Assembly: GCF_055900595.2 (NCBI RefSeq) | Contig: NZ_CM148325.1 | Direction: 5' to 3' (one strand) | Length of the DNA stretch: 64,000 nucleotides | Shown: positions 1,842 to 39,118 of the stretch, one piece after another | Layout: every line of letters starts with the position of its first letter | Position numbering within the stretch: position 1 is the first letter of the stretch | The notes under the pieces: generated by a model | Databases searched by the model: none | What the model was told of the DNA's origin: nothing | What the model saw: only the letters and a program-made list of their open reading frames with translations | Translations under genes and position numbers: made by a program

Positions 1842-3038
1842 TCAGCTTGCGAGACGCGTCACCTCTTTTCTGGCGACTTCACGCGCGTTCGTATCAACAG
1901 ATAACACATCGTCCACGCATTGTGGTTCGCGCATATCCATTTTTTCCAGTACGGATAAATTCAACGCGGCGATATCCGTAAAGCGGATTTGTTGCGCAAG
2001 AAAGGCTGCAACGGTGATTTCGTTTGCGGCATTCAATGCAGTCGTCGCAGCCTGGCCTTGTTCGAACGCGTCCATTGCCAGTTTAAGGCATGGATAGCGA
2101 TCATAATCCGGTGCGGCAAATGTCAACGCACTGAGTTTGCAAAAATCCAGCGGCTTCACACCAGAGTTCACGCGATTCGGCCAGGCCATGGTGTGGGCAA
2201 TTGGCGTACGCATATCCGGTTCACCCAACTGCGCCAGAACACTGCCGTCCTGATAACGCACCATTGAGTGAATCACTGACTGCGGATGAATCAGCACTTC
2301 CATCTGGCTGGCACTGGCGCTAAACAACCAACGCGCTTCAATGTATTCCAGACCTTTGTTCATCATGGTAGCCGAATCGACAGAAATTTTACGCCCCATC
2401 GACCAGTTCGGATGACGGCAGGCTTGATCCGGCGTCATTGTTGCCAAATCGCGCAATGGCGTCTCACGGAAAGGGCCACCAGACCCGGTAAGCAAAATGG
2501 ACACCACGCCATTTTGCTCAAGGTCAGCGTATCCCAGATTATGCTGGATAGGTTGCGGTAAACTCTGAAAAATGGCGTTATGTTCGCTATCGACTGGTAA
2601 CAATTGCGCTTTGCTCTGCTTTACGGCGTCCATAAACAGACGTCCGCAAGTGACCAGTGATTCTTTATTGGCCAGCAAAATGGTTTTACCCGCGCGGATC
2701 GCAGCAAGCGTAGGTAACAGCCCAGCAGCGCCAACAATGGCTGCCATCACCTGATCAACATCCTCAAGCGCTGCCATATCGCAAGCGGCTTGTTGCCCAC
2801 TTAAGACTTCGGTGCGGCTACCCTGTTGCTGTAGCATCGTTTTAAGAAGTTTCGCACTCGCTTCATCGTCCATTACGGCATAGCGGGGAGAGAATTCCAG
2901 GCACTGCTCTACCATGCGAGTGACATTTTTGCCTGCCACCAGCGCAACTACGCGGAAGTGTTCGGGATTATGGCGCACCACGTCCAGCGTGCTGCAACCA
3001 ATCGAGCCGGTCGAGCCCAGAATGGTGAGTTGCTTCAT
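1842..3038 (-). CDS. dxr: 1-deoxy-D-xylulose 5-phosphate reductoisomerase
   Basis: 398-aa ORF, N-term [21 protein letters not shown] (NADPH-binding motif); synteny frr-dxr-uppS. Confidence 0.92.
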
Positions 3039-3065
3039 GAAACATCCAGAGTTGAGACAGAATAA

Positions 3066-3117
3066 AAAGCAAAACGCCGCCAGCCGATCCGCAAGGATCT
3101 ACTGAGCGGCGTTTTTT
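3066..3117 (-). terminator. stem-loop terminator after frr
   Basis: AAAACGCCGC ... GCGGCGTTTT long hairpin with U tracts on both strands. Confidence 0.6.
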
Positions 3118-3130
3118 GTCGTTCAAGAAA

Positions 3131-3688
3131 TCAGAACTGCATCAGTTCTGCTTCTTTGTCTGCCAGCGCCGCTTCAATTTTCTTGATTGCAGCATCAGTC
3201 AGTTTCTGTACATCGTCCTGAGAACGGCGATCGTCGTCTTCGCTGATCTCTTTATCTTTCAACAGTGCTTTCACTTTGTCGTTCGCGTCACGACGCACGT
3301 TACGTACTGCAACACGCGCTTGTTCTGCTTCACCACGAACGATTTTGGTCAGATCTTTACGACGTTCTTCCGTCAGCGGCGGCAGCGGAACACGAATGTC
3401 GCTACCCGCAGAGTTCGGGTTCAGGCCAAGATCGGACGCCATAATCGCTTTTTCAACGGCCGGAGACATTGAACGATCAAACACGTTGATTTTCAGAGTA
3501 CGGGAATCTTCTACCGTTACGCTTGCCAGCTGACGCAGCGGCGTCGGCGTGCCGTAATATTCCACGACAATGCCATCCAGCAGGCTGGGAGAAGCACGAC
3601 CCGTGCGTATTTTGCTGATTTGGGTTTTGAACGCTTCTACGCATTTGTCCATGCGTACTTCAGCATCTTTTCTGATATCGCTAATCAC
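3131..3688 (-). CDS. frr: ribosome recycling factor
   Basis: 185-aa [24 protein letters not shown]; synteny pyrH-frr. Confidence 0.92.
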
Positions 3689-3979
3689 GTTACGAATCCT
3701 TGAAAACTTGTCTCAGTCAGACCAGACAGTCACACACAGTGGAAGTGTGCTAAGTATAGCCCTGATTAAACATATTACGGGTAATCGTCTGGATTATTAG
3801 GCTATTTTATTTGCCATTTTGGCACCGGGCAGTGCTCGCCATCCTCACGTACTTGTGTACGCTCCGGTTGCTGCGCGCTGGCCGTGACCAAACTACCTGC
3901 AACAATAACGCCTTATAACCAGACTTACGCCCCCGCGATACTTACGCGGAATCTTACCCTTATTTATCCATCACGGGAA

Positions 3980-4705
3980 TTATTCCGTGATTAAAGTCCC
4001 TTCTTTTTCACCCATTACCACACGGCGCAGCGCACCCGGTTTGTTCATGTTGAAAACACGAATCGGTAATTTATGGTCACGAGCCAGCGTGAAGGCCGCC
4101 AGGTCCATGACTTTCAGCTCTTTTTCCAGCACTTCGCTGTAAGTCAGTTGCTCGTACATCGTTGCGGTTGGATCTTTCGCCGGATCAGCAGTAAACACGC
4201 CGTCAACTTTGGTTGCTTTCAACACCACATCAGCTTCAATTTCGATACCACGCAGGCAAGCTGCAGAGTCGGTGGTAAAGAACGGGTTACCTGTACCGGC
4301 GGAGAGGATCACCACACGATTGTTGCGCAACAGGCTAATCGCTTCTGCCCAGCTGTAGCTGTCGCACACGCCATTCAATGGAATAGCGGACATCAGACGA
4401 GCGTTCACATAGGCGCGGTGCAGTGCATCACGCATTGCCAGGCCGTTCATTACGGTCGCCAGCATCCCCATGTGGTCGCCCACAACGCGGTTCATACCCG
4501 CTTTCGCCAGACCAGCGCCACGGAACAGGTTACCCCCACCAATCACCACACCAACCTGAATACCCAGTTCAACCAGTTCTTTGATTTCCTGAGCCATGCG
4601 ATCCAGTATGCTTGCATCAATACCGAAGCCTTCCGTGCCCTGCAGAGCTTCGCCACTCAACTTAAGCAGAATGCGTTTATAGACGGGTTTTGCATTGGTA
4701 GCCAT
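3980..4705 (-). CDS. pyrH: UMP kinase
   Basis: 241-aa [24 protein letters not shown]; synteny tsf-pyrH-frr. Confidence 0.92.
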
Positions 4706-5761: not shown

Positions 5762-5788
5762 AAAAGGGGGCCATATGCAGGCCCCCTA
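5762..5788 (-). terminator. rpsB-tsf intercistronic hairpin (partial terminator/attenuator)
   Basis: Minus strand AGGGGGCC-TGCATAT-GGCCCCCT followed by TTTTT, between the rpsB stop and tsf start. Confidence 0.65.
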
Positions 5789-5960
5789 ACCAAACGTGTA
5801 CTACCTGGTCTATAAGGGCTCTCCCCCTTCATATTTCGCGCCGCAGATGCGTTGTCTTCGCTCGCTCATCCCGGTCACTTACTGATGTAAGCTCCCGGGA
5901 ATTCTCGAGCTTGCCGCCTTTCTGCAACTCGAACTATTTTGGGGGAGTTATCAAGCCTTA

Positions 5961-6908
<948 letters not shown>

Positions 6909-14215: not shown

Positions 14216-15640
14216 TTACTGCATTAACAAGTAGATGGTGCTGTCGCCGCGCTGAATGTTCAGTGCCAGCACAGACGGTTTGCTGTCGAGAACTTTACGC
14301 AGTTCAGCGATGTTTTTCACTGCCTGCTGGTTCGCACCAATAATCACATCACCTTTCTTCAGGCCGATCTGCGCAGCTGGAGTGCCCGTTTTCACGTTGT
14401 TCACCACCACGCCCTGATCTTTGCCTTTGTTGCTCATCTCAGCGCCTTCAATGCCGTTGAAGATGGTGCTGGAATCAACCTGATTCTGGCTGCTCTGCTG
14501 CAGTTCCAGGTTCACGTTAACCTGCTTCCCGTCGCGCAGTAAGCCCAGGGTCAGTTTGCTGCCTACCGGCATAGTGCCCACCTGAGCACGCAGTGCGGCA
14601 AAGCTGCTGATTGGCTTACCGTTCAGTGAGGTGATCACATCACCCGCTTTAATGCCCGCTTTCGCGGCGGAAGAATTCGGCAGAACCTGGCTTACGAAAG
14701 CACCGCGCTGGGCGTCAACTTTCATCGCTTTCGCCAGATCGGAGTTCAGCTCAGTCCCCATAATACCCAGCTCACCGCGTTTCACCTGGCCGTATTCCAC
14801 CATCTGCGAGGTCAGGTTTTTCACCATGTTACTCGGGATAGCAAAACCGATACCGATGTTGCCGCCGTCCGGTGCGAGGATCGCGGTGTTGATACCGATC
14901 AGTTCGCCGTTCAGGTTAACCAGCGCACCACCGGAGTTACCACGGTTGATCGCAGCATCGGTCTGGATGAAGTTTTCATAGTTTTCGGCATTCAGACCGC
15001 TACGCCCCAGCGCAGAGACAATCCCGGAAGTTACTGTCTCGCCCAGGCCGAACGGGTTACCAATTGCTACGGTGTAATCACCCACGCGCAGTGCATCAGA
15101 ATCCGCCATCTTAATTGCGGTCAGGTTTTTCGGATTCTGGATCTGGATCAGCGCGATATCAGAGCGCGGATCTTTGCCAACCATCTTCGCGTCGAACTTA
15201 CGACCATCGCTCAGCTGGACTTTAATCACCGTCGCGTTATCAACAACGTGGTTGTTGGTGACGACATAGCCTTTATCGGCATCAATGATGACGCCGGAAC
15301 CCAGCGCCATGAATTTTTGTTGCTGGCCGCCGCCATTACCGCCCTGGCCCCCCTGGCAGAACGGAGAGCTCTGGAACGGAGAACCTTCCTGGCAGAACGG
15401 AGAATCATCACCGAAGAACTGCTGGAAATTACGCGGCATACGCGGCGTATTAACGGTTGTGCTACCTTCTACGTTAATGCTGACCACTGAAGGCATCACC
15501 TTTTCGAGCATTGGTGCAAGGCTTGGTATCTGCTGGGCTGTCGTTGCTGAAGAAGTCTCAGCCGCCGTTGCAGAGAGCGGAGATAACGCCAAACCTAAAC
15601 TCAGAGCCAGTGCACTCAGTGCTAATGTGGTTTTTTTCAT
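14216..15640 (-). CDS. degP: periplasmic serine endoprotease/chaperone DegP (HtrA)
   Basis: 474-aa ORF, signal peptide MKKTTLALSALALSLGLALSPLSATA, trypsin-like domain and two PDZ domains. Confidence 0.92.
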   Translation of the reverse strand: MKKTTLALSALALSLGLALSPLSATAAETSSATTAQQIPSLAPMLEKVMPSVVSINVEGSTTVNTPRMPRNFQQFFGDDSPFCQEGSPFQSSPFCQGGQGGNGGGQQQKFMALGSGVIIDADKGYVVTNNHVVDNATVIKVQLSDGRKFDAKMVGKDPRSDIALIQIQNPKNLTAIKMADSDALRVGDYTVAIGNPFGLGETVTSGIVSALGRSGLNAENYENFIQTDAAINRGNSGGALVNLNGELIGINTAILAPDGGNIGIGFAIPSNMVKNLTSQMVEYGQVKRGELGIMGTELNSDLAKAMKVDAQRGAFVSQVLPNSSAAKAGIKAGDVITSLNGKPISSFAALRAQVGTMPVGSKLTLGLLRDGKQVNVNLELQQSSQNQVDSSTIFNGIEGAEMSNKGKDQGVVVNNVKTGTPAAQIGLKKGDVIIGANQQAVKNIAELRKVLDSKPSVLALNIQRGDSTIYLLMQ

Positions 15641-15685
15641 GTATTTCAGTCTCGATTAACAGATAACGCAAAATTGCTGTGTTCT

Positions 15686-19914: not shown

Positions 19915-19995
19915 ATTTTGCTCCAAACGACATCGGCAATTGGGCAAATTCTAACCCAATAATAATCGCCATTATCTAATACCCTGGTATTTCGT

Positions 19996-21641: not shown

Positions 21642-22922
21642 ATGAGTAAGTCTGAAAATCTATACAGCGCAGCGCGCGAGCTGATCCCTGGCGGTGTGAA
21701 CTCCCCTGTTCGCGCCTTTACCGGCGTGGGCGGCACTCCACTGTTTATCGAAAAAGCGGACGGCGCTTATCTGTACGATGTTGATGGCAAAGCCTATATC
21801 GATTATGTCGGTTCCTGGGGGCCGATGGTGCTGGGCCATAACCATCCGGCGATCCGCAATGCCGTGATTGAAGCCGCCGAGCGTGGTTTAAGCTTTGGTG
21901 CACCGACCGAAATGGAAGTGAAAATGGCGCAACTGGTGACCGAACTGGTCCCGACCATGGATATGGTGCGCATGGTGAACTCCGGCACTGAAGCGACAAT
22001 GAGTGCCATCCGCCTGGCCCGCGGTTTTACCGGTCGCGACAAAATCATTAAATTTGAAGGTTGTTACCACGGTCACGCTGACTGCCTGCTGGTAAAAGCC
22101 GGTTCTGGCGCACTCACGTTAGGCCAGCCAAACTCGCCGGGCGTTCCGGCAGATTTCGCCAAACATACATTAACCTGTACTTATAACGATCTGGCCTCTG
22201 TACGCGCCGCGTTTGAGCAATACCCGCAAGAGATTGCCTGTATTATTGTCGAGCCAGTAGCAGGCAACATGAACTGTGTTCCGCCGCTGCCAGAGTTCCT
22301 ACCGGGTCTGCGCGCACTGTGCGACGAATTTGGCGCATTGCTGATCATCGATGAAGTGATGACCGGTTTCCGCGTGGCGCTGGCTGGCGCGCAGGATTAT
22401 TACGACGTGGTGCCAGACCTCACCTGCCTGGGCAAAATCATCGGCGGTGGAATGCCGGTAGGCGCATTCGGTGGTCGTCGTGATGTGATGGATGCGCTGG
22501 CCCCGACCGGTCCGGTCTATCAGGCGGGTACGCTTTCCGGTAACCCGATTGCGATGGCAGCCGGTTTCGCCTGTCTGAATGAAGTCGCGCAGCCGGGCGT
22601 TCACGAGACGCTGGATGAGCTGACAACACGTCTGGCAGAAGGTCTGCGGGAAGCGGCAGAAGAAGCGGGAATTCCATTGGTCGTTAACCATGTTGGCGGC
22701 ATGTTCGGTATTTTCTTTACCGACGCCGAGTCCGTGACGTGCTATCAGGATGTGATGGCCTGCGACGTCGAGCGCTTTAAGCGTTTCTTCCATATGATGC
22801 TGGACGAAGGTGTTTACCTGGCACCGTCAGCGTTTGAAGCGGGCTTTATGTCTGTGGCGCACAGCATGGAAGATATCAATAACACCATCGATGCTGCACG
22901 TCGGGTGTTTGCGAAGTTGTGA
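21642..22922 (+). CDS. hemL: glutamate-1-semialdehyde 2,1-aminomutase
   Basis: 426-aa [29 protein letters not shown], class-III aminotransferase. Confidence 0.92.
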
Positions 22923-22934
22923 TCCAGCATGGTT

Positions 22935-23022
22935 TGTCGGATGCGGCGTAAACGCCTTATCCGACCTACAGATCAGGACCGTTTGTAGGCCCGATAAGAC
23001 GCCACAGCGTCGCATCGGGCAT
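22935..23022. repeat. REP (palindromic unit) pair / BIME between hemL and fhuB
   Basis: TGTCGGATGCGGCGTAAACGCCTTATCCGACCTACA and inverted copy GTAGGCCCGATAAGACGCCACAGCGTCGCATCGGGCAT. Confidence 0.8.
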
Positions 23023-23079
23023 CCGTTGCCGCGTAAAAGCTTTATCCATCCAGGAGTTAAGGGCCGTTATATGGAAAAA

Positions 23080-25062
23080 TTAACGGCTCTGCTTTCTCAA
23101 CAAATAGATAAAATACGGCGCGCCGATAAAGGTCGACAGCAGCCCCGCTGGGATCTGGAATGGAAACAGCACCATCCGCCCACACCAGTCAGCGAACACC
23201 AGCAGTAATCCCCCCACCAGCGCCGAAATCACAATATGCGGCATCGTCCGTCGAAAGCCCATCATCCGTGCGATATGCGGTGCCATCAGGCCAACAAAAC
23301 TCAACGGCCCGATGGTCATTGTCGCGGTCGCCGTCAGGCAAGCCGCCAGCAGCAGTAGCGCAATTCGCGTCGGCGTCAGCGCCATTCCCACGGCTCGTGC
23401 GGTATCACCTCCCAGCGGTAAAATGGTCAGCCAGCGGCGGCACAGCGGGGTAATCGCCAGCAAAATCACCATCACAATTCCGGTGCGCCAGACCTGCGCC
23501 TCGGTCGCGTTGTAGGTCGAACCGGAAATCCAGGTCAGAACTTGCGCCATTCGCGGGTCACCACTTGCCTGCAACATCATCAAAAGCATGGTGAACGCGG
23601 TACTTAACGCCATCCCCGCCAGTAACATGCGGTGTGGAGAAAATCCACCGCGTCCGGCGGCGATCATAATGATCAACAGCGTCACCGCCGCCCCGAGACT
23701 TCCCGCGGGTAACAGCCAGCCAAAGGCATTACCCGGCACCAGAAACAGCATTAACACCACGCCAAACGCCGCGCCGGAGCTAATCCCCAGCACTTCCGGG
23801 CTTGCCATCGGGTTGCCGGTCAGCCGCTGAATAATACAGCCCGCCACCGCCAGCATGACGCCCGCAAACAGCGCCGCCATAATTCGCGGCCAGCGCCAGG
23901 GCATCAAATCCTCGAGCAGCGCCCCGCTCGCCCACGTCCAGCCGTGCGCATCACGACCAAACGACAGCGCCACCACCACAGCAATTATCAGCAGCACACC
24001 GCCAGCAAGGGCAAACGCCAGCACATGTTGGCGTTCAGTCGCGACACGATCGTTGGCCTTCATATCCGGCGCACTGATGCTGCGTAAACGCGGCAGCAGC
24101 CACAGTAACAGCGGCGCACCTATCAACGCCGTCATCGAACCGGTAGAAACTTCCATCCACACGCGAGTCAGCCAGAGGATGATTTGATCGGAAAGCCAGA
24201 GGATCAGCGCACCAATCAGTGACGCCAGCAGCAGTCTTGGCAGCAGACGCCGCGCCCCCAGCATTTTTGCCAGCAGCGGCGCGAACAACCCGATAAAGCC
24301 GATAATCCCCACCGCGTTCACCAGCAGAGCACTGATGACTATCGCCAGCGACAGCGCCGCCAGACGCGCGAGCGATAAAGCCAGTCCGAGATTACGCGCC
24401 ACGCCATCATCAAGCCCCATCAGGGTTAATGGACGAAGTAGCAGTAACGTCAACATCACGCCGCCCAGCAGCTGTGGCCATAAACGCTCAACGCCGCCCC
24501 AGTCGGTTTGCGTCAGCGTTCCGGTACTCCACAGGAACATGCTTTGTAGCTGGTCGTGATGGAAGATAACCAGTAACTGATTGATTGCCCCGCAATAAAG
24601 GCTCACCACAAGCCCCGCGAGGATCAGCGTTACCGGAGAAAGCCGTTTCCCCCACGCGACGCCAAAGACAATTAAGCCAACCACACAAGCCCCTGCCAAT
24701 GCAGCAAACTGGCTCGCCATAGCACCAGGGATCGCCCAGAGCGTGGTGACGGTAATCCCCAGTTGCGCGCCTGTAGCAACGCCCAACGTGGTCGGTTCCG
24801 CCAGCGGGTTACGTAACACTTGCTGAAACAGCACGCCCACCAGTCCCAGACCCGCGCCCACCAGCAGCGAAATCGCCAGACGTGGCAGCAAGCTGTAGTG
24901 AAAAATCATCTGCTCGATGACGTCAATATCCGGCGACCAGGCAGCCTGCGCCCACTGGCTACGCGGCAGCGCCTGAGAGAAGTTCATCCAGGTGAGCACC
25001 GCTGCGGCAACCACCAACAGCGCCAGCAATAATGCCGGGAAAAGCGCAATACGTTTACTCAC
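23080..25062 (-). CDS. fhuB: ferric hydroxamate ABC transporter permease
   Basis: 660-aa ORF, duplicated FecCD-type permease halves; operon fhuA-C-D-B. Confidence 0.9.
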   Translation of the reverse strand: MSKRIALFPALLLALLVVAAAVLTWMNFSQALPRSQWAQAAWSPDIDVIEQMIFHYSLLPRLAISLLVGAGLGLVGVLFQQVLRNPLAEPTTLGVATGAQLGITVTTLWAIPGAMASQFAALAGACVVGLIVFGVAWGKRLSPVTLILAGLVVSLYCGAINQLLVIFHHDQLQSMFLWSTGTLTQTDWGGVERLWPQLLGGVMLTLLLLRPLTLMGLDDGVARNLGLALSLARLAALSLAIVISALLVNAVGIIGFIGLFAPLLAKMLGARRLLPRLLLASLIGALILWLSDQIILWLTRVWMEVSTGSMTALIGAPLLLWLLPRLRSISAPDMKANDRVATERQHVLAFALAGGVLLIIAVVVALSFGRDAHGWTWASGALLEDLMPWRWPRIMAALFAGVMLAVAGCIIQRLTGNPMASPEVLGISSGAAFGVVLMLFLVPGNAFGWLLPAGSLGAAVTLLIIMIAAGRGGFSPHRMLLAGMALSTAFTMLLMMLQASGDPRMAQVLTWISGSTYNATEAQVWRTGIVMVILLAITPLCRRWLTILPLGGDTARAVGMALTPTRIALLLLAACLTATATMTIGPLSFVGLMAPHIARMMGFRRTMPHIVISALVGGLLLVFADWCGRMVLFPFQIPAGLLSTFIGAPYFIYLLRKQSR

Positions 25063-25949
25063 GCTTTACCTCCGATGGCGTTATCCAGAATACGCACAAA
25101 GTGCATTGCCGAGAGCGTCGCACCATAAAACCAGACTGCGGGGACGCGCTGAAAGCGTCCGGCACGGACAAACGGCATGGCCTGCCACAGCGGGGTTGCC
25201 ATTAGTGCGTCCATGTCTTTGCTGTTGTCGTGATCAAAACAGAGCACATCAACGTCCTTATACGCTGCCAGACGATCGATACTGACGGCAGTACTGCCCC
25301 AGAAGTTGGTTTCTCCTTGCCAGGCATTTGGGATGCCGTACTCATCGAGAATTTCCTGGAACAGGCTGTTCGGGCCGAAGACCAGCATATGGCGTGGATC
25401 GATAAGCGTCGTCAGCAATAACGGGCGCGCACCACGCTTCACAAAACGGGGTTTCATGCTGCGGATGAAGTCTTCATAGTGCGCTAAATGCGTTTCTGCT
25501 GCGCTTTGCAGGTTAAGCAAATCTGCCATTTCCGTCAGCGATTTACGCGCCATCGCCAGCGGCTGTTTGCCGTCGCTGAAGTTAAATCCGCGCCCCGGCG
25601 CAATACGTGCCAGCATTTCTGGCGAAGGGCCATACCCTGCCGACCAGACCATAAACGACGGCTTCATTTCGGTCAGCAGTTCAAGGTTAGGTTCTGTCCG
25701 CAAACCGACGTCAATCACCGATTCAGGTAATGGCGGTTCGCTGACCCACAGGCGATAGTTGATGGTATCCGCCACGCCGTAAGGCACGATGCCTAGCGCC
25801 AGCAGTAATTCCACCGGCAACCACTCCAGCGCCACAATACGCTTTGGATCAATAGCCGCCGCGCGGGCGGTATTCATCTGCCATAACAACGGAGATAGCG
25901 CCATCGCTGTTAACAGTCGACGGCGCGTAATTAGAGGTAAGCCACTCAT
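25059..25949 (-). CDS. fhuD: ferric hydroxamate periplasmic binding protein
   Basis: 296 aa from MSGLPLITRRRLLTAMALSPLLW (Tat-like signal); stop overlaps fhuB start, start overlaps fhuC stop. Confidence 0.88.
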   Translation of the reverse strand: MSGLPLITRRRLLTAMALSPLLWQMNTARAAAIDPKRIVALEWLPVELLLALGIVPYGVADTINYRLWVSEPPLPESVIDVGLRTEPNLELLTEMKPSFMVWSAGYGPSPEMLARIAPGRGFNFSDGKQPLAMARKSLTEMADLLNLQSAAETHLAHYEDFIRSMKPRFVKRGARPLLLTTLIDPRHMLVFGPNSLFQEILDEYGIPNAWQGETNFWGSTAVSIDRLAAYKDVDVLCFDHDNSKDMDALMATPLWQAMPFVRAGRFQRVPAVWFYGATLSAMHFVRILDNAIGGKA

Positions 25950-26746
25950 CAATAAACAAAACTCACAGGTGCAGCACCCGCCGGATGCGGCAAAATTCCC
26001 ATCGGGATGCCATAAATCATTTCGAGGGTTTCGCCGCGCATAATTTCCGCAGGCGTTCCCTGCGCAATCATTTCACCGCCGCGCAGGGCGACCAGATAAT
26101 CACAGTAACGCGCAGCCATATTGATATCGTGCAGCACGGCAATGACCGTCAGGCCACGCTCCTGACTTAAACGGTGCACCAGCGCCAGCACATCAACCTG
26201 GTGGGCGATATCCAGCGCCGAGGTCGGTTCGTCGAGCAACAGACAACGGCTATCCTGCGCCACCAGCATGGCGATCCACGCCCGTTGACGTTCGCCGCCA
26301 GAGAGGCTATCGACCAGCCGATGCGCCAGCGGTTTTAAGCCAACCAGCGAGATAGCCTCTTCGACCTTTTCGCGATCTGCCGCGCCAAAGCGCCCCAGCG
26401 CGCCATGCCACGGGTAACGACCAATCGCCACCAGTTCACGCACCGTCATCCCTTCTGCCGGAGGAAGCTGCTGCGGCAAATAAGCCACTTTGCGAGCAAA
26501 CGCTTTGCTGCTCCAGCTTTCCAGCGGCTGGGCATCAAGAAGAATCTCCCCTTCTGACGGTGGCTGATGGCGGCCCAACATTTTTAACAGCGTGGATTTA
26601 CCAGAGCCGTTGTGACCAATCAGACCGGTCACTTTCCCGGCAGGAAAGGTTAACGACAGCGGATGCAAAAGCGTGCGCCCGGGCACACGAAAGGAGATAT
26701 TACGCAGTGCAAAAGTGGTATCGGAATGATTCGTGTATTCCTGCAT
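25949..26746 (-). CDS. fhuC: ferric hydroxamate ABC transporter ATP-binding protein
   Basis: ORF of 300 aa; conserved protein starts at internal MQEYTNHSDTTFALRNISFRVPG giving 265 aa; Walker A GHNGSGKST. Confidence 0.9.
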   Translation of the reverse strand: MQEYTNHSDTTFALRNISFRVPGRTLLHPLSLTFPAGKVTGLIGHNGSGKSTLLKMLGRHQPPSEGEILLDAQPLESWSSKAFARKVAYLPQQLPPAEGMTVRELVAIGRYPWHGALGRFGAADREKVEEAISLVGLKPLAHRLVDSLSGGERQRAWIAMLVAQDSRCLLLDEPTSALDIAHQVDVLALVHRLSQERGLTVIAVLHDINMAARYCDYLVALRGGEMIAQGTPAEIMRGETLEMIYGIPMGILPHPAGAAPVSFVY

Positions 26747-26796
26747 AACAGCCAACTTGTGAAACGGGCACGGAAATCCGTGCCCCAAAAGAGAAA

Positions 26797-28992
26797 TTAG
26801 AAACGGAAGGTTGCGGTTGCAACGACCTGACGTTCTGCGCCCCAGTAACATGCATAATCACGATAGCAACTGGAGACATATTCGCGGTCGAACAGGTTAT
26901 TTACGTTAACACCAACAGAAGAACCAGGCATACCGAAACGAGCAAGATCATATTTTATCATTGCATCAACCAAGGTATACCCCCCAACATTGAATGTCTG
27001 ATTGGTCTTATCACCCGTAGTGTAGAAACTTGAGGTGTCGCCAAAATAACGTGCCCCTGCACCAAGACTCAGACCACTAAGAGCTGTTTCGTGGAAAGTG
27101 TAATCTGCCCACAGCGAAGCCATATTTCGGGGGACCTCTGCCGGGCGTTTACCCTTGTACAATGTATCTTTGGTGTATTCAGCATCGGTGTAGCTGTATG
27201 CCGCAGTCACATTGATATTAGCGTTGACAGCTGCTTTAGCCTCAATCTCAAAGCCACGAGAACGAATCTCCCCCCCTTGTACGCTAAACAAAGTATTACT
27301 TGGATCTGCAGTCAGATTTTTGTCTTTCGTTAATTGGAATACCGAGGCAGTGACAGTGACAGGCGTATCTTTTGGTACGTATTTGACACCTGCTTCGTAC
27401 TGCTTACCGCGAGAAGGATCAAACGGTTTACCTTCTTTAGTCGCTCCAGATACTGGCTCGAAGGATTCGCTATAACTGAAATAAGGTGAAATACCATTAT
27501 CGAACAGATAATTAATACCACCTCTCCAGGTGAACTGCTGATCGTTAATTTCATCCAAAGAACTCGTTGAACGAGTATAGGTAGAGGTTTTCGCAAAATC
27601 GTAACGACCACCCAGCGTCAATACCCACTTATTCCACTCAGACTGATCCTGAATATAAAGGCCTGTCTGTTCCTGACGGTTAATTACCGCATATGGGAAA
27701 TTGATATTGATATTGGCGTTACCGTACTGTGGATCCGTCATGCTAATCGGATTAGCAGTACCATAGTTTGCATCAATATCGTTACGCATTCGCAGGTAAT
27801 CCACGCCAGTAAGCAAAGTATGCGCTACAGCACCGGTAGCAAAGTTGGACTGTAGTTGCGTATCAACAGTAAACGAATTTAAATCTTCGTCTGAACGTAC
27901 ATAAGCACGGCTAATTTGCGCTGGCGCGATGTAACCATTGCCATATACTGCATCGTAGAGTGTATGAATGCGGGTATAGCGCAGATTCTGACGTACAGTA
28001 AAAGTATCATTAAATTCATGAGCAAAACTGTAGCCAATTAATTGTTGACGACGAGACATCTTATTATCTTTCTCGCCTTCATTGAAATCTGTTGGCAATT
28101 TGTGCCAGCTACCATTTGCATCCTGATAGGGAACAACAGTTCCCTGGCGCGGTAACCAACCATAATAGCCCGCATCGGGATCACTCTGGAAATTACTCAG
28201 GAAAGTGAAATCCGTTTTATCATCAGGACGCCAACTGAATGAGGGAGCAACTGCATACCTTGTAGTTTTTGCGTACTTTTGTTGCGCATCCTGACTACGT
28301 CCTAATCCCGTCAAACGATATGACCAAACGCCATCATCATCTATTGCATCACTAAAATCGAATCCGGTCTGCCAAAGATTATCCGTTCCCATTTTGAACT
28401 GGATCTCTTTAATCGGATCCGTTGAAGGCCGTTTGCTTACCATGCTCACTACTCCGCCCGGATGGCTTTTACCATACAGTACGGATACTGGGCCACGGAG
28501 TAATTCCACACGCTCAAGGAAATAAGGATCAATAGAGGCTTCAGAGTAGTTATCCCCCTGAAGTTTTAAGCCATCCAGATATTGGTTAGTATTTACTGTA
28601 CTGGCTGTAGTAAATCCACGTATAGAAACAACATCATACGTTGTTGAACTACCACGCGTTGAAAAGACACTTGGCGTATAATCCAGAGCTTCTTTTACCG
28701 TTGCGGGTTGTTTGATATCCATCTCTTCCCGGGTCACAACCGAAATAGACTGCGGCGTTTTTTCAATTGGTGTATCCGTTTTAGTCGCAGTAGCAGAGTG
28801 CTTCGCCGCAATAGTTGCAGCTGGCCCCCATGCGCTTTCTTGCGGCGCTGGTGCAGCGGTAACGGTGATAGTGTCTTCTTTCGGTTCAACCGCTGCCTGT
28901 GCATAAACAGACATGCCGCTAACCGCTGTGGCTACTACAACTGCGATTTTACGCAGTGAGTGTTTTGGCTGAGCAGTTTTGGAACGCGCCAT
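26797..28992 (-). CDS. fhuA: TonB-dependent ferrichrome outer membrane receptor, divergent allele
   Basis: 731-aa ORF; signal peptide and TonB box (DTITVTA) and C-terminal GAERQVVATATFRF match E. coli FhuA, but the barrel/loop region differs extensively from the K-12 protein as recalled and lacks the loop cysteine pair. Confidence 0.85.
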   Translation of the reverse strand: MARSKTAQPKHSLRKIAVVVATAVSGMSVYAQAAVEPKEDTITVTAAPAPQESAWGPAATIAAKHSATATKTDTPIEKTPQSISVVTREEMDIKQPATVKEALDYTPSVFSTRGSSTTYDVVSIRGFTTASTVNTNQYLDGLKLQGDNYSEASIDPYFLERVELLRGPVSVLYGKSHPGGVVSMVSKRPSTDPIKEIQFKMGTDNLWQTGFDFSDAIDDDGVWSYRLTGLGRSQDAQQKYAKTTRYAVAPSFSWRPDDKTDFTFLSNFQSDPDAGYYGWLPRQGTVVPYQDANGSWHKLPTDFNEGEKDNKMSRRQQLIGYSFAHEFNDTFTVRQNLRYTRIHTLYDAVYGNGYIAPAQISRAYVRSDEDLNSFTVDTQLQSNFATGAVAHTLLTGVDYLRMRNDIDANYGTANPISMTDPQYGNANININFPYAVINRQEQTGLYIQDQSEWNKWVLTLGGRYDFAKTSTYTRSTSSLDEINDQQFTWRGGINYLFDNGISPYFSYSESFEPVSGATKEGKPFDPSRGKQYEAGVKYVPKDTPVTVTASVFQLTKDKNLTADPSNTLFSVQGGEIRSRGFEIEAKAAVNANINVTAAYSYTDAEYTKDTLYKGKRPAEVPRNMASLWADYTFHETALSGLSLGAGARYFGDTSSFYTTGDKTNQTFNVGGYTLVDAMIKYDLARFGMPGSSVGVNVNNLFDREYVSSCYRDYACYWGAERQVVATATFRF

Positions 28993-29012
28993 TGGTATAT
29001 CTCTGATGTAAA

Positions 29013-29047
29013 GTGAATGATAACGTAAACGAGAATGATTATTATAA
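29013..29047 (-). promoter_or_regulatory. Fur box(es) in fhuA promoter
   Basis: Minus-strand TTATAATAATCATTCTC and CGTTATCATTCAC resemble the GATAATGATAATCATTATC Fur consensus, 20-55 bp upstream of the fhuA ATG. Confidence 0.65.
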
Positions 29048-29211
29048 AGATGAGATAATATTCGAAACGCTGGCGGGTTCGCAAGCGGTACGCAATCTGA
29101 GCATTCCTGAGGGGTTAATAAACAATCAGATGAAAAGAAAGGGTTAATACTTTGGGTAGGATGTTATTTTACCGGATGGCGACTCGCCATCCGGTATGTC
29201 ACGCTTAGACG

Positions 29212-31746
29212 TTAATTACTACCAAACATATCCTTGATCCAACCTGCTACGCCGTCACTGTCTTTCTGCTCTTGCTGAGCAGGTTGCTGTTGCGGTTGTT
29301 GCTGCGGCTGAGAAGACTGATCAAACGGATTGCCTGACGGTTGCTGCTGAATCTCACTCTGCTGGCACAGCGATTGCGGATCGCTGGTCCAGACCGGCAA
29401 GACACGCATGCCACCGCTGCAGACAAAGTTGCCGTCGTAGTCCACGCCCATATCTGCAATATCTTCTGGTGGAACAAGATTCAGCGGTGTTGGTGTCTGG
29501 TTAGCCAGATAACGCTGATAAATCGACATTGCCCCACTGGCACCATACAGTTTGGTCGGCTGGTTGTTATCACGGCCTACCCAGGTGATGGTCACCGTGC
29601 TGCCGTCAATGCCCGCAAACCAGGTATCCACGTTGTTGTTGGTAGTCCCGGTTTTGCCCGCCAGATGCAGGTTCGGGTATTTCGCCCCAAGCTGACGACC
29701 CGTACCGCGTTGTACCACCTGCTGCATGGTCCATAGTGTCAGATACGCCGCCTGCGCCGGAACCGCGCGTTCCGCCTGCGGGAAGCTCTGATACAACACC
29801 TTGCCATCTTCCGCGATTACCGAACGCAGCGCAGAAAGCGGTGCTCGGTTACCACCGCTGGCGATGGTCTGGAACGCCTGCGCCACTTCAATTGGCGTTA
29901 AGTTCAACGCCCCCAGCAGCATTGCCGGAACCGGATGCAGCTGATCTTTCGGTACGCCCAGTTTAATCCAGGTATCCGTAACCGCAGGCAGCCCCAGCGC
30001 CATCCCCAGATTTACCGTCGGCACGTTCATCGAACGAGTCAACGCATCCACCAGCATCACTCTGCCACTTTCGCTATAACGACGATCATCGTTCTGCGGT
30101 GACCAGACCTGGCCATTCGGCTGACGCAGCGCGATTGGCGCATCGGCAATCCACGTGTTCAGGCGATAGATTTTCGGCTGGCTTAAGGCCGTCAGATAAG
30201 TCGCTGGTTTTGCAAGGGAACCAATCGAACGACGCGCCTGCATCGCACGGTTGTAACCTGCAAACTGCGGCTCAGAACCACCAACCATCGCACGAACTTC
30301 ACCACTAAAGCGGTCGACGACCACAATTGCCGTTTCCAGATCGCTTAACTTACGCTGTTTCTTCAGTGCCGGAATGCCTTCCACGGCGGCTTTTTCCGCC
30401 GCGTCCTGAGCCACCGAGTCAAAGGTAGTGAAGATCTTCACGCCGGAGAGATCTTTTACCTTATCGCCTAATTTCGCCTGCAGCTCCTGACGCACCAGTT
30501 GCATAAAGGCTGGCTGTGGAGAGATTACCCCACCACGCGGCTGAACCCCCAGCGGACGTGCACTCAACATGTCATAGAGCTCTTGATCAATAATCTGCTG
30601 TTGTTGCAGCAGACGCAGCACCAGGTTACGTCGCTCCAGCGCCAGTTTCGGGTTACGCCACGGGTTGTAGATGGACGCTCCTTTCACCATACCAACCAAC
30701 AGCGCCTGCTGGTCGAGACTCAGCTCTTCTACCGGGCGACCAAAGTAGTACAGGCTCGCCAGCGGGAAACCGCGGATTTCGTTGTCGCCGCTCTGACCGA
30801 GATACACCTCGTTCATATACAGCTCAAGAATGCGGTCTTTGCTGTAACGCGCATCCATGATCAGCGCCATGTAGGCTTCGTTCGCTTTACGCCAGTAAGA
30901 ACGTTCGCTGGAGAGGAACAGGTTTTTCACCAACTGTTGCGTCAGCGTACTCGCCCCCTGTACCGTGCGTCCGGCGGTCAGGTTTGCCAGCACCGCACGT
31001 CCGATGGAGTAGAGACTGATCCCATCATGCTCGTAGAAATGACGGTCTTCTGTCGCCAGCAAAGTATCCACCAGCAAATCCGGGAAACCACTGCGCGGCA
31101 CAAACAAACGCTGCTCACCGTTTGGCGAAGAGATCATGGTGATCAGACGCGGATCAAGACGGAAGAAACCAAACTGACGGTTGTTCTCCATATTGACGAT
31201 CGTCGACAGGTGATCGCCATCAAAGGTCAGACGCGCACGCACCTGCCCTTCTTTACTGTCCGGGAAATCAAACGGACGGCGGATCATCTCAATGCTGTTG
31301 GCCTGCACGGTAAATTCGCCAGGACGGGTCATTTTTGACACCTGACGATACTGGGTCGCCTCCAGCAGCTTCACCATCTCGTTCTTGCTGATGGTCATGT
31401 CTGGCTCAAGGTTGACCATTCGGCCATAAACAGCCGCAGGCAATTGCCAGACTTTGCCATCAATACGGCTACGAATTTTTTGATCGAGATAAACACCGTA
31501 AATGGCGATCAGCACGGCAAAAACGATAGCCAGTTTTAGCAGCAGCCATAGCCAGCCGCGTTTGCCACGAGGCTTACGCCCTTTGCCTTTGCCCTTACCT
31601 TTGCGCGGCATCGGTTCTTCATCCTCATAGTCATCATAATCGTCGTAATCATCGTCATCTTCGTAACGACGACGGCTTACCTTTTGTTTGACCGGACGCG
31701 TCGGTTTCCCTTTGCGTCCAATTGGCTCGCGGTCATTCCCGGCCAT
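29212..31746 (-). CDS. mrcB: penicillin-binding protein 1B (bifunctional glycosyltransferase/transpeptidase)
   Basis: 844 aa from [15 protein letters not shown]; acidic [15 protein letters not shown] tract, TP and GT motifs, Q/P-rich C-terminus; the ORF extends 5 codons further upstream. Confidence 0.9.
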
Positions 31747-31839
31747 GCTTTTTCTCCGCAATATTCAGGCGCAAAAGCCCGATTTTCTGTTCTTCTGTAA
31801 CAAGACAGAAGAAGATATCTCTCAAATTTACTTTGGTCT

Positions 31840-34269
31840 TCATGAATACTTTTTCGTCCGTCGCGTCGGTGCGGTATTTGCCGGATCATCCGGCCAGACG
31901 TGTTTGGGATAACGCCCTTTCATCTCTTTTTGCACATCGCGATACGCTCCTTTCCAGAAGGCGCTCAAATCTCGTGTGATTTGCAGCGGCCTTTGGGCAG
32001 GAGAAAGCAACTCCAGCACCAGCGGCACACGCCCCTGGGCGATCGTCGGATTGGTGGCCTCGCCAAACATCTCCTGCATTCTCACCGCCAGCGCGGGCGG
32101 GTTATCTTCATGGTAACGAATGGCGATCCGGCTTCCCGTCGGCACAGTGTAATGCGCAGGCAATTCACTATCCAGACGTTGCTGCATTCCCCAATCAAGT
32201 AATCCGCGTAGCGCCTGAAAAATATCGAGTGATTTCAGGCCGCGTAGCGAATGTACCCCTGTCATATGCGGCAGCAGCCACGTTTCCAGCGTCGCCAACA
32301 AACTTTCATCATCAACCGCTGGCCAGTCATATTCCGGCAACCACTTTGCGGCGCATAACAAACGCAAGCGTAGCTGTTCCGCTTCCGCCGTCCAGTTAAG
32401 CACGCTTAAGCCTTTATCACGAACGCCGTTAAGCATCGCCTGATGCAGCTCGTCTTCTGAAGGCTTCGCCAGCGGCTGCACTTTTACCGTCAGTTGACCA
32501 ATTTGCAACCGACGCCAGGCTTTCAGCGTACCTTGCGCATCATCCCACTCCACGGTGTCCGATTGCTGCACCAGCTGCGGACAGCGTTGCACTAATTCAT
32601 CGATATCGACCGGTAGCGCCAGTAAAATCCGCGCATCCGGCGAGGCGCTACCCTGCAATAATAACGGTGCGATCAACCATTCGTGGCGGCTGAGCGCATC
32701 ATCGGCATCGAGCATTGCCCCCATGCCGTTTGCCAGTTGATAGCGCCCCTCTTGCCCACGGCGGCGAGCGATGCGATCGGCAAACGCTCCGGCAAGTAAC
32801 GGTGCGATAAGCGAACTGTCTGCCTCACCGCCGCGTACGTTTAAGCGCTTTAACAGTTGCTGGCTACGTTGCTGCCAGGCAGGTTGATTGCGCGAAAACG
32901 CCACGCCCAGATCGATATTGCCCATCCGTGGTGGCTCTTCGAGAATAGCGGCAATTTTTGCAGCGGTAGCAGCTTCGTCGTCGCTCTTTGCGCTCACCAG
33001 CATTGCCGCTAAACGCGGATCGTTACCCAGCGTCGCCATTTTCTGCCCTTTCGTGCTTAGCCGTTCACCGTCCATCGCCCCCAGCATCCGCAACAGGCGT
33101 TTCGCGGCCTGTAAATTCACGGCTGGCGGTTGATCCAGCCAGCTCATCTGCGTCGGATCGCTGCATCCCCATTGCAGTAATTCCATCAGCAAACCGGAGA
33201 GATCGCTTTGTAATATTTCTGGTTCACTTTGCGCGGAGGCGCGTTCTGCTTGTTCTTTGGCGATTAAATGTAAACAGATCCCCGGCTCCAGACGTCCGGC
33301 ACGCCCGGCGCGTTGCGTCATTGATGCCTGGCTAATGCGTTGGGTAATCAGCCGCGTTAGCCCCGTGCGCGGATCAAAGCGCGCCACACGTTCCTGAGCA
33401 CAATCCACCACCAGACGAATACCTTCGATGGTTAAACTGGTTTCAGCAATATTGGTCGCCAGCACCACTTTGCGCATCCCTTGTGGTGCCGGAAGGATCG
33501 CTTTTCGCTGATCGTTCAGCGACAACGCGCCATACAGCGGGCAGAGCAACACATCACTACCGATGCGCGAAGCCAGTTGTTCCTGCACACGCTGAATTTC
33601 TCCGACACCCGGTAAAAATAACAGTAATGAGCCGCTTTCCTGATGCAGCAATTCGGCGGTGGCAACCGCCACGGCTTCATCAAAACGCTGATGAGCGGGC
33701 AGCGGTAAATATCGGCGTTCAACCGGAAACGAGCGCCCTTCTGAGATGACGACGGGCGCTTCTGGCAGCATCTGCTGCAAGCGGTCATTGTCCAGCGTAG
33801 CCGACATAATCAGTAGTTTAAGGTCATCACGCAGCCCCTGTTGCACATCGAGTAACAGCGCCAACGCCAGATCCGCCTGCAAGCTGCGCTCATGAAACTC
33901 ATCGAGGATCACCAATCCAACGCCGCTCAGTTCAGGGTCACGCTGGATCATGCGCGTCAACACGCCTTCGGTAACTACTTCCAGGCGAGTATTTGGCCCG
34001 ACACAGTTTTGCGCGCGCATCCGGTAGCCTACCGTATCACCTGTTTTTTCGTTAAGCAGTTCCGCCAGTCGTTGCGCAACGTTACGCGCCGCCAGACGAC
34101 GCGGCTCCAGCAGGATAATTTTTCCGTTAATGCCGGGATGCGCCAGCAGTTGCAGCGGCAGCCAGGTTGATTTCCCGGCCCCGGTCGGCGCACTTAATAA
34201 CACCTGCGGTGCACCATCGAGGGCAGCAAGTAACTCAGGTAAGACGGCAGCAACGGGCAACGACGACAC
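31840..34269 (-). CDS. hrpB: ATP-dependent RNA helicase HrpB (DEAH-box)
   Basis: ORF of 824 aa; Walker A APTGAGKST and DEFHER motifs; probable GTG start at VSSLPVAAVL giving 809 aa. Confidence 0.85.
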   Translation of the reverse strand: MSSLPVAAVLPELLAALDGAPQVLLSAPTGAGKSTWLPLQLLAHPGINGKIILLEPRRLAARNVAQRLAELLNEKTGDTVGYRMRAQNCVGPNTRLEVVTEGVLTRMIQRDPELSGVGLVILDEFHERSLQADLALALLLDVQQGLRDDLKLLIMSATLDNDRLQQMLPEAPVVISEGRSFPVERRYLPLPAHQRFDEAVAVATAELLHQESGSLLLFLPGVGEIQRVQEQLASRIGSDVLLCPLYGALSLNDQRKAILPAPQGMRKVVLATNIAETSLTIEGIRLVVDCAQERVARFDPRTGLTRLITQRISQASMTQRAGRAGRLEPGICLHLIAKEQAERASAQSEPEILQSDLSGLLMELLQWGCSDPTQMSWLDQPPAVNLQAAKRLLRMLGAMDGERLSTKGQKMATLGNDPRLAAMLVSAKSDDEAATAAKIAAILEEPPRMGNIDLGVAFSRNQPAWQQRSQQLLKRLNVRGGEADSSLIAPLLAGAFADRIARRRGQEGRYQLANGMGAMLDADDALSRHEWLIAPLLLQGSASPDARILLALPVDIDELVQRCPQLVQQSDTVEWDDAQGTLKAWRRLQIGQLTVKVQPLAKPSEDELHQAMLNGVRDKGLSVLNWTAEAEQLRLRLLCAAKWLPEYDWPAVDDESLLATLETWLLPHMTGVHSLRGLKSLDIFQALRGLLDWGMQQRLDSELPAHYTVPTGSRIAIRYHEDNPPALAVRMQEMFGEATNPTIAQGRVPLVLELLSPAQRPLQITRDLSAFWKGAYRDVQKEMKGRYPKHVWPDDPANTAPTRRTKKYS

Positions 34270-38645: not shown

Positions 38646-39118
38646 CAGTGGCGTATATTGCTATCGGCAGCAATCTGGCCTCTCCGCTGGAGCAGGTCAA
38701 TGCTGCCCTGAAGGCAATAGATGACATTCCTGAAAGCCGCATTCTTGCCGTTTCTTCGTTTTACCGCACCCCACCACTGGGGCCGCAAGATCAACCCGAT
38801 TACTTAAACGCAGCCGTGGCGCTGGAAACCTCTCTTACAGCTGAAGAACTCCTCAACCACACACAGCGTATTGAGTTGCAGCAAGGTCGCGTCCGCAAAG
38901 CTGAACGCTGGGGACCGCGCACGCTCGATCTTGATATCATGTTGTTTGGTAATCAGGTCATAAACACTGAGCGCCTGACCGTTCCGCACTATGATATGAA
39001 GAATCGTGGATTTATGTTGTGGCCGCTGTTTGAGATCGCGCCGGAACTGGTGTTTCCTGATGGTGAAACGCTGCAAGCAAGACTCACTACTTTCCCTCCC
39101 TGCCCACAGCACTGGTAA
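38642..39118 (+). CDS. folK: 2-amino-4-hydroxy-6-hydroxymethyldihydropteridine pyrophosphokinase
   Basis: 158-aa [31 protein letters not shown] overlaps pcnB stop (ATGA); C-terminal approx. 18 residues differ from the K-12 protein as recalled. Confidence 0.85.

Follow-up and report, generated by a model that had tools for sequence, protein, structure and literature searches.

How can the gene of a surface receptor differ strongly from its K-12 counterpart while the DNA that controls it, and the genes transcribed after it, stay almost unchanged? This question is raised by the ferric-hydroxamate uptake operon fhuA-fhuC-fhuD-fhuB on contig NZ_CM148325.1 of assembly GCF_055900595.2, which was analysed as one stretch of 64,000 nucleotides (nt), called the window below. 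The operon consists of consecutive minus-strand open reading frames (ORFs) in region 23080-29084. Taken as one reading, the locus is very probably the canonical chromosomal fhuACDB operon of E. coli, with a proposed regulation that is shared with K-12 and an old polymorphism that is confined to the fhuA coding sequence (CDS). Textbooks have covered the operon, with its Fur box and overlapping cistrons, since the 1980s, and divergent fhuA allele classes were described in 2018. The operon description itself is therefore nothing new. The additions are the exact boundaries of the divergent block, the species-wide invariance of the regulatory DNA around it, the finding that the allele is typical of the family, and the covariation of a hairpin between fhuA and fhuC. 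These additions are incremental.

A Divergent Block Inside fhuA

A sequence-only reading had proposed a Fur-controlled fhuA, followed by tightly overlapping transporter genes, for positions 25059-29050, a span that runs from the fhuD stop to the upstream edge of the Fur box. It had also proposed that a divergent fhuA allele sits in an otherwise conserved regulatory and operon context. All of these elements were found again; that they lie on the minus strand had been left unstated. In a 10.4-kb alignment with K-12, identity is 92-100% per 100 nt except inside fhuA, where it drops to 40-73% and is accompanied by indels. The divergent block lies wholly within the CDS (Table 1). On its 5′ side, the first codons of fhuA are 98.9% identical to K-12, with two synonymous Pro changes, and are common to all E. 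coli allele classes examined. On its 3′ side, the end of fhuA and the spacer to fhuC are 99% identical to K-12, and the boundary at 26843/26842 is common to all allele classes compared.

The block and its surroundings are distributed very differently within the species. Of 5,426 complete E. coli genomes, 5,421 carry the 121-nt segment with the promoter and the Fur box at 95% identity or more, and 5,423 do so for a 146-nt query that runs from the end of fhuA across the spacer into the start of fhuC. The block itself reaches at least 95% identity in 90. These carriers fall into 13 genomes at 99% identity or more, including enteropathogenic E. coli (EPEC) O127:H6 E2348/69, and 77 genomes at about 96.4%, a varied set isolated from humans, livestock and the environment. 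In E2348/69 and in NCTC10444, the latter with K-12-like flanks, the block begins and ends at the same positions. The two sub-alleles differ by 3.6% in the block and by 3.8-7.4% in the flanks, which points to a long residence of the allele in E. coli. The allele thus appears to be an old polymorphism.

Two further observations concern fhuA variation in other genomes. A third fhuA class (729 amino acids, aa; found in MMC-J-0085 and STEC1590, fhuA at 2312-4501 of the extracted loci) encodes a protein with 74% identity to K-12 FhuA and 66% to that of the window; in approximately 240 further genomes it aligns to 80% of the block or more. This class matches the window allele up to about 28716 and then diverges, giving a staggered 5′ boundary. 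In addition, 3-6 E. coli genome matches to fhuA or its promoter are on plasmid-labelled records, which may be mislabelled chromosomal contigs or captured fragments.

E2348/69 differs from the window upstream of the operon. It carries a chaperone-usher fimbrial operon of about 5.2 kb, with a frameshifted chaperone gene, between mrcB and fhuA (NC_011601.1 173,000-178,414; 7000-12415 of the extracted locus). Identity to the window returns about 145 nt upstream of the fhuA ATG, so that the promoter and the Fur box are kept. The window strain does not have this insertion.

The Window Allele Among Related Genera

FhuA and its neighbours were compared across genera by local tblastn in 80 loci, with one genome scanned per species. 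The window FhuA shares 80-85% aa identity with the proteins of Trabulsiella, Enterobacter, Klebsiella, Raoultella, Lelliottia, Kluyvera, Pseudescherichia and Cedecea, and K-12 FhuA shares 56-62% with the same eight genera. The order mrcB-fhuACDB is the same in all of their loci. The flanking proteins of the window have identities of mostly 85-90% for MrcB (80-83% in Cedecea), 88-94% for FhuC (81% in Trabulsiella), 71-77% for FhuD (61-63% in Cedecea) and 81-86% for FhuB (73-74% in Cedecea). Because FhuA identity broadly tracks that of the flanking proteins, the window FhuA stands at an ordinary orthologous distance and the K-12 type is the outlier among the sampled genera, which were retrieved with peptide patterns of the window allele, so that genera with a K-12-like FhuA (Salmonella and others) are missing.

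With 80-85% identity to FhuA of Trabulsiella, Enterobacter and Klebsiella, the window protein is nearer to these genera than to K-12 FhuA (63%). This would be expected if E. coli had lately acquired the complete fhuA, with foreign regulatory DNA, from another genus. Such an import was rejected as extremely improbable. In nucleotides, the promoter, the Fur box, the spacer and the first 63 and last 15 codons match K-12 at 99-100%, and no sampled species representative exceeds 85% aa identity. Moreover, the two carrier lineages are about as far apart in the block as in their flanks, which again argues for long residence.

The reading as an old allele of E. coli agrees with the classification in the literature. 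Wang et al. define the FhuA clusters E1-E4 and report that fhuCDB follows the species tree and fhuA does not (Wang et al., 2018, bioRxiv 10.1101/320069; Infect Immun 86:e00573-18). According to this work, E4 proteins have insertions in loops L3 and L10, lack part of L4, differ in L5-L7 and group with other genera as Enterobacteriaceae Group II (Wang et al., 2018, bioRxiv 10.1101/320069). In later work of the same group, “mosaic evolution” of outer-membrane proteins has fhuA as its prototype. In a pairwise alignment with K-12 FhuA, the window protein has a 4-aa insertion at K-12 291/292, about six extra residues at 667-676, and deletions at 351-369 and 446-454. It fits cluster E4/Group II, as judged by the described indel pattern rather than against a named E4 reference strain.

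Predicted Promoter and Fur Box

A consensus scan predicts a promoter of the form TTGCGA-18 nt-TATTAT upstream of fhuA, with 9 of 12 consensus matches. It is the sole minus-strand promoter-like site in 22800-29400. By eye, a perfect alternative -10 element, TATAAT, is present at 29045..29040. The sole -35 element at 17-nt spacing from it is GTTTCG (2/6), and the TTGCGA/TATTAT pair was kept, the promoter being predicted only.

The Fur-box-like sequence that the sequence-only reading had placed upstream of fhuA is present as the core CTTTATAATAATCATTCTC. In a mismatch scan with the 19-bp consensus, it is in a four-way tie for the top score among the approximately 128,000 positions of the 64-kb window. 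Weaker, overlapping Fur registers (11-13 of 19 matches, in 3- and 6-bp steps) surround the core between about 29007 and 29055, and together they resemble the hexamer arrays of genuine Fur operators. When the 219-bp intergenic region was shuffled 5,000 times with its dinucleotides preserved, 2.3% of the shuffles contained a match of 14/19 or better and 0.6% a cluster as dense as this one. One of the sites that tie with the fhuA box for the best score of the window is the near-palindromic 19-mer AATAATAATCGCCATTATC at 19958-19976, which matches the consensus at 14 of 19 positions on both strands. Collinearity with K-12 (~176,600) puts it inside yadW, a short way upstream of erpA.

Comparison with other sequences strengthens the assignment. 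In the 150 nt upstream of the fhuA ATG there are two differences from K-12, at 29103 and 29052, neither of them in the Fur 19-mer. The 58 nt upstream of the ATG, including the Fur box, are identical to K-12, with 29052 as the closest difference. In K-12, a Fur cluster at 167439, 45 nt upstream of the fhuA start, comprises three sites in 31 bp, scores 19.5 bits and is positive in gel shifts (Chen et al., 2007, PMC2189734). This position corresponds to about 29037 of the window. The architecture was further compared in approximately 75 loci of Enterobacteriaceae, Yersiniaceae and Erwiniaceae. In most of these, the best match to the Fur consensus, (C/T)ATAATAAT(A/C/T)ATT(C/A)TC, is found 35-41 nt upstream of the fhuA ATG. 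Because the site is conserved in other genera and identical to the gel-shifted K-12 site, the support for a Fur box goes beyond the sequence match. Fur control of fhuA in the window strain is thus likely, given this identity to K-12 and the geometry of the site. The “PfhuA” of PMC3621691 is the promoter of fhuA in Vibrio cholerae and was set aside.

Overlapping Cistrons

The transporter genes overlap as the sequence-only reading had claimed, and the overlaps can now be sized. At the fhuC/fhuD junction, TAT TGA TGA GTG, base 25949 belongs to both the TGA stop and the ATG start (TGATG, an overlap of 1 nt). At the fhuD/fhuB junction, GGAGGTAAAGC GTGA, the GTG start overlaps the TGA stop by 4 nt, 25062..25059. 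Both junctions are identical to K-12 in sequence. The 1-nt overlap of fhuC and fhuD (TGATG or TAATG) is universal in the Enterobacteriaceae and Serratia loci compared, and almost every locus has the 4-nt overlap of fhuD and fhuB (ATGA or GTGA), with the range extending from Escherichia as far as Serratia, Rahnella and Erwinia.

Since the overlaps are kept while neighbouring bases vary, the overlap geometry is argued to be selected. This conservation is consistent with translational coupling, without being proof of it. Coupling of the three cistrons is suggested by the stop/start geometry and by its identity to K-12.

Alternatively, the overlaps could be a matter of compact packing, with each cistron loading ribosomes independently and without functional coupling. 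The GGAGG Shine–Dalgarno sequence of fhuB, 6 nt upstream of its GTG, is strong and fits this alternative, and overlaps of 1 and 4 nt are, as is generally known, very common in bacterial operons. A literature search also found no paper demonstrating coupling in fhuCDB. However, mere packing does not readily explain why both overlaps have hardly any exceptions between Escherichia and Serratia, Rahnella or Erwinia when the adjacent bases vary. The lack of a good Shine–Dalgarno sequence upstream of fhuD (GTGAGTTTTGTTTATTGATG) fits a dependence on ribosomes that terminate at the fhuC stop. Independent loading is therefore considered unlikely, and translational coupling remains the preferred reading.

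The fhuA-fhuC Spacer and Its Hairpin

The spacer between fhuA and fhuC, which had been estimated at about 50 bp, measures exactly 50 bp. The junction has the same layout as in K-12, with one difference in the spacer; no rearrangement is present and, as described above, the Fur site is retained. In other Enterobacteriaceae the spacer measures 45-56 nt, and it is longer in Rahnella, Ewingella and Rouxiella. In a Buttiauxella metagenome-assembled genome (MAG), Rahnella perminowiae and Serratia rubidaea NCTC12971, fhuA seems to be cut by an early in-frame stop, giving script-derived “spacers” of 344-1398 nt; these interrupted genes are either pseudogenes or assembly errors.

An element of the spacer that had been overlooked is a GC-rich hairpin. 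It starts about 10 nt after the fhuA stop codon, ends about 19 nt before the fhuC ATG, and is part of the minimum free energy (MFE) fold of the spacer, at approximately -17.5 kcal/mol. In an alignment of 49 distinct spacers, the 8-bp helix is paired in 96.4% of the cells, and slid-partner controls give 41-62% pairing. At five of the eight helix pairs, both bases have changed in a compensatory way; one such exchange replaces G-C by A-U in 18 sequences, another C-G by G-C in 6. On four of five measures the helix outscores every one of 500 column shuffles, on the remaining measure it outscores 498 of them, and RNAalifold gives the same helix independently. An Rfam scan of the whole window returned no family in the fhu region, including the position of the hairpin. 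The original K-12 fhuA sequence, from Coulton and co-workers in 1986, reportedly shows a dyad symmetry after the stop codon.

The function of the hairpin may differ between genera. A textbook intrinsic terminator is seen in Enterobacter, Lelliottia, Pseudescherichia and others, where TTTTTATT comes after the helix. In the window the tail after the hairpin is GTTTCA, and in K-12 it is ATTTCA. The window tail, GTTTCACA, is below the threshold of 5 T in 8 that was set for a U-tract and that several other genera reach with TTTTTATT. Because the tail GUUUCA is no proper U-tract and the terminator scan makes no call on the spacer hairpin, a role as a terminator in E. coli is uncertain. The same scan gave 11 terminator-like matches inside coding sequence, compared to 7.6 ± 2.9 in shuffles; these are not in excess and were ignored. 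In E. coli the hairpin may be mainly a 3′-end protector, or a weak pause or terminator site.

In a pcnB mutant, fhuC and fhuD are affected more than fhuA, and a discrete 3′ fhuA fragment of about 700 nt accumulates (Maes et al., 2016, PMC5389530). These data are compatible with a partial terminator or a 3′-protecting structure, without proving either. A literature search found nothing direct on a fhuA-fhuC terminator or on Term-seq 3′ ends. In all, the hairpin is probably a partial terminator or a stabiliser of mRNA 3′ ends, which would make fhuA mRNA more abundant than fhuCDB mRNA. A wider proposal is more tentative and is held at somewhat less than even confidence: the hairpin would be a deeply conserved attenuator or 3′-end stabiliser that sets the ratio of receptor to ATP-binding cassette (ABC) transporter across Enterobacterales, and it would help to explain why replacement of fhuA alleles invariably ends before the last 15 codons and the spacer.

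Transcription Unit and Proposed Mechanism

If the hairpin were a full terminator, fhuA would be monocistronic and fhuCDB would need a promoter of their own. The stability of the hairpin, its maintenance by covariation and the TTTTTATT tail in many genera would suit such a terminator. The U-tract of E. coli is degenerate, however, the distance from the hairpin to the fhuC ATG is only about 19 nt, and the scan gave no minus-strand promoter-like site in the spacer or its vicinity. Since the interior of fhuA is replaced with fhuCDB unchanged, an internal promoter for fhuCDB would be confined to the last 45 nt of fhuA and the spacer; for the minus strand of 29400-22800, the consensus scan reported no second site that resembles a promoter. 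Furthermore, fhuA frameshifts are reported to be polar on fhuCDB by Wang et al. (2018, bioRxiv 10.1101/320069), and the literature treats fhuACDB as one Fur-regulated operon (Wang et al., 2018, bioRxiv 10.1101/320069; PMC5389530). Full termination is therefore very unlikely. The promoter scan, the 50-nt spacer and the reported polarity indirectly support a single transcription unit from the predicted fhuA promoter.

The following mechanism is proposed for this single unit. Transcription would start at a sigma-70-type promoter that is overlapped just downstream by Fur hexamers. In the presence of iron, Fe2+-Fur would occupy the promoter and block initiation; in its absence, the operon would be transcribed as one unit. 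Past the fhuA stop codon, the spacer hairpin would most likely end or protect some of the transcripts, leaving the receptor in excess over the ABC transporter. Transcripts that read through would carry fhuC, fhuD and fhuB, and the overlaps TGATG and GTGA would let terminating ribosomes re-initiate, linking the output of the three transporter subunits. Allele exchange would cross over in homologous DNA only, so that the flanks are homogenised up to the edges of the block. Such a restriction of crossovers would explain why the allele classes share the promoter, Fur box, signal peptide, TonB box, C-terminal strand, spacer and fhuCDB.

Several points weigh against this account. Judged by its letters alone, the Fur box exceeds chance by no more than a moderate margin, as the 2.3% of shuffles indicates. 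The strong GGAGG of fhuB itself may make coupling unneeded. The tail of the spacer hairpin is below the U-tract criterion, and the choice of loci in the cross-genus set favours the window allele.

Setting of the Locus and Other Features of the Window

The coordinates of the operon and its elements are listed in Table 1. All four proteins pass their NCBIfam equivalog models: NF007465 for FhuA (1330 bits, cut-off 803), NF007863 for FhuC (578 bits, cut-off 433), NF007864 for FhuD (551 bits, cut-off 252) and NF007865 for FhuB (1414 bits, cut-off 1107). FhuA matches both TIGR01783 and NF007465 over its full length, has the TonB box DTITV as in K-12 and ends in TFRF, with an aromatic residue at its C-terminus. 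The longest-ORF calls give 300 aa for fhuC and 297 aa (TTG start) for fhuD; the ATGs that match K-12 were taken as the real starts. The whole window is collinear with K-12 196,559 to 132,562, in reversed orientation. Its best database match is E. coli Z0117EC0005 (NZ_CP098223.1; dog, South Korea), with approximately 99.9% identity and an identical annotation, fhuA included.

Table 1. Coordinates of the fhuACDB operon, its predicted regulatory elements and its neighbours in the window.
Feature	Position	Strand	Description
fhuA CDS	28992..26797	minus	731 aa; TAA stop 26799..26797; TonB-dependent ferrichrome receptor
fhuC	26746..25949	minus	265 aa; ABC transporter ATPase
fhuD	25949..25059	minus	296 aa; periplasmic binding protein; ATG start
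fhuB	25062..23080	minus	660 aa; fused permease; GTG start
Predicted -35 of fhuA promoter	29079..29084	minus	TTGCGA; consensus scan; same in K-12
Predicted -10 of fhuA promoter	29055..29060	minus	TATTAT; consensus scan; directly upstream of, and overlapping, the Fur hexamer array
Putative Fur box core	29031..29049	minus	14/19 matches to consensus GATAATGATAATCATTATC; 38 nt upstream of fhuA ATG
Conserved fhuA 5′ end	28804..28992	minus	first 63 codons: signal peptide (codons 1-33), TonB box DTITV (28875..28861), start of plug
Divergent allelic block of fhuA	26843..28803	minus	1,961 nt; 63% nt identity to K-12; wholly inside CDS
Conserved fhuA 3′ end	26797..26842	minus	last 15 codons (WGAERQVVATATFRF) and stop; identical to K-12 from 26842 down
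fhuA-fhuC spacer	26747..26796	minus	intercistronic; 50 bp; 1 difference from K-12
Spacer hairpin	26766..26785	minus	GGGCACGG-loop AUUU-CCGUGCCC; GC-rich 8-bp stem
mrcB	31746..29212		upstream neighbour
hemL	21642..22922		downstream neighbour, convergent

Some differences from K-12 lie outside the operon. At 39075-46774, the K-12 yad chaperone-usher fimbrial region (yadN-yadV-htrE-yadMLKC) is strongly divergent between flanks of 91-94% identity. The usher alone aligns to K-12, at 41466-43331 with 65.7% identity, and the region is probably another allelic replacement of a surface structure. The hrpB-mrcB intergenic region (31830-31843) is without about 100 nt of K-12 164,531-164,646. At 48439-48561, about 123 nt have no K-12 counterpart, K-12 being contiguous there (147,938/147,939, at the panC-rpnC boundary). 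Rfam matches at gathering level, all on the minus strand, are the CssrA small RNA (sRNA) at 5766-5875, the t44 RNA at 6714-6800, upstream of rpsB, and the thermometer of the HtrA (degP) 5′ untranslated region (UTR) at 15635-15680.

Implications

Exact boundaries that are common to the carriers and classes compared imply that variation of this phage and colicin receptor is swapped as a cassette, leaving regulation, export signals and the transporter genes untouched. As the allele is typical of the family and K-12 is the outlier among the sampled genera, the use of K-12 FhuA as the reference is affected. This concerns predictions of phage host range or of sideromycin uptake in strains such as EPEC E2348/69. 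The spacer hairpin, finally, is a clean candidate for differential expression within the operon.

Comparison with Known Systems

The closest known system is fhuACDB of K-12 (b0150-b0153). The neighbours mrcB and hemL, the gene order, the 50-bp spacer, the 1-nt and 4-nt overlaps, the promoter and the Fur box are all alike, and so is the geometry of the K-12 annotation (169727/169778, 170575/170575, 171465/171462). FhuC is 100% identical to its K-12 counterpart, and FhuD and FhuB are each 98% identical. The exception is FhuA, which has 731 aa in the window compared to 747 aa in K-12, the two proteins being 63% identical. The flanks are 3-7% off K-12, as expected for a distant phylogroup.

The predicted control region resembles the Fur-repressed siderophore-receptor promoters of E. 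coli, in which overlapping 19-bp Fur sites with 6-bp spacing lie over the core promoter (PMC2189734), and there is no sequence difference between the window and the K-12 fhuA Fur cluster. With its GC-rich 8-bp stem and tetraloop soon after a stop codon, the spacer hairpin is similar to intrinsic terminators and intercistronic attenuator hairpins. It differs from intrinsic terminators in that the fhuA-fhuC tail of E. coli is below the U-tract criterion. The receptor itself compares with cluster E4. Relative to K-12, the window allele has insertions in surface loops L3 (Indel 1) and L10 (Indel 2) and deletions in L4 (Indel 3) and L5 (Indel 4), with the loops assigned as by Wang et al. (2018). 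In its accessible portion, that work mentions neither the spacer hairpin nor the promoter and Fur box that the classes share, and it gives no nucleotide-level limits for the block. Its grouping of Group II with non-Escherichia genera agrees with what was found for the window allele.

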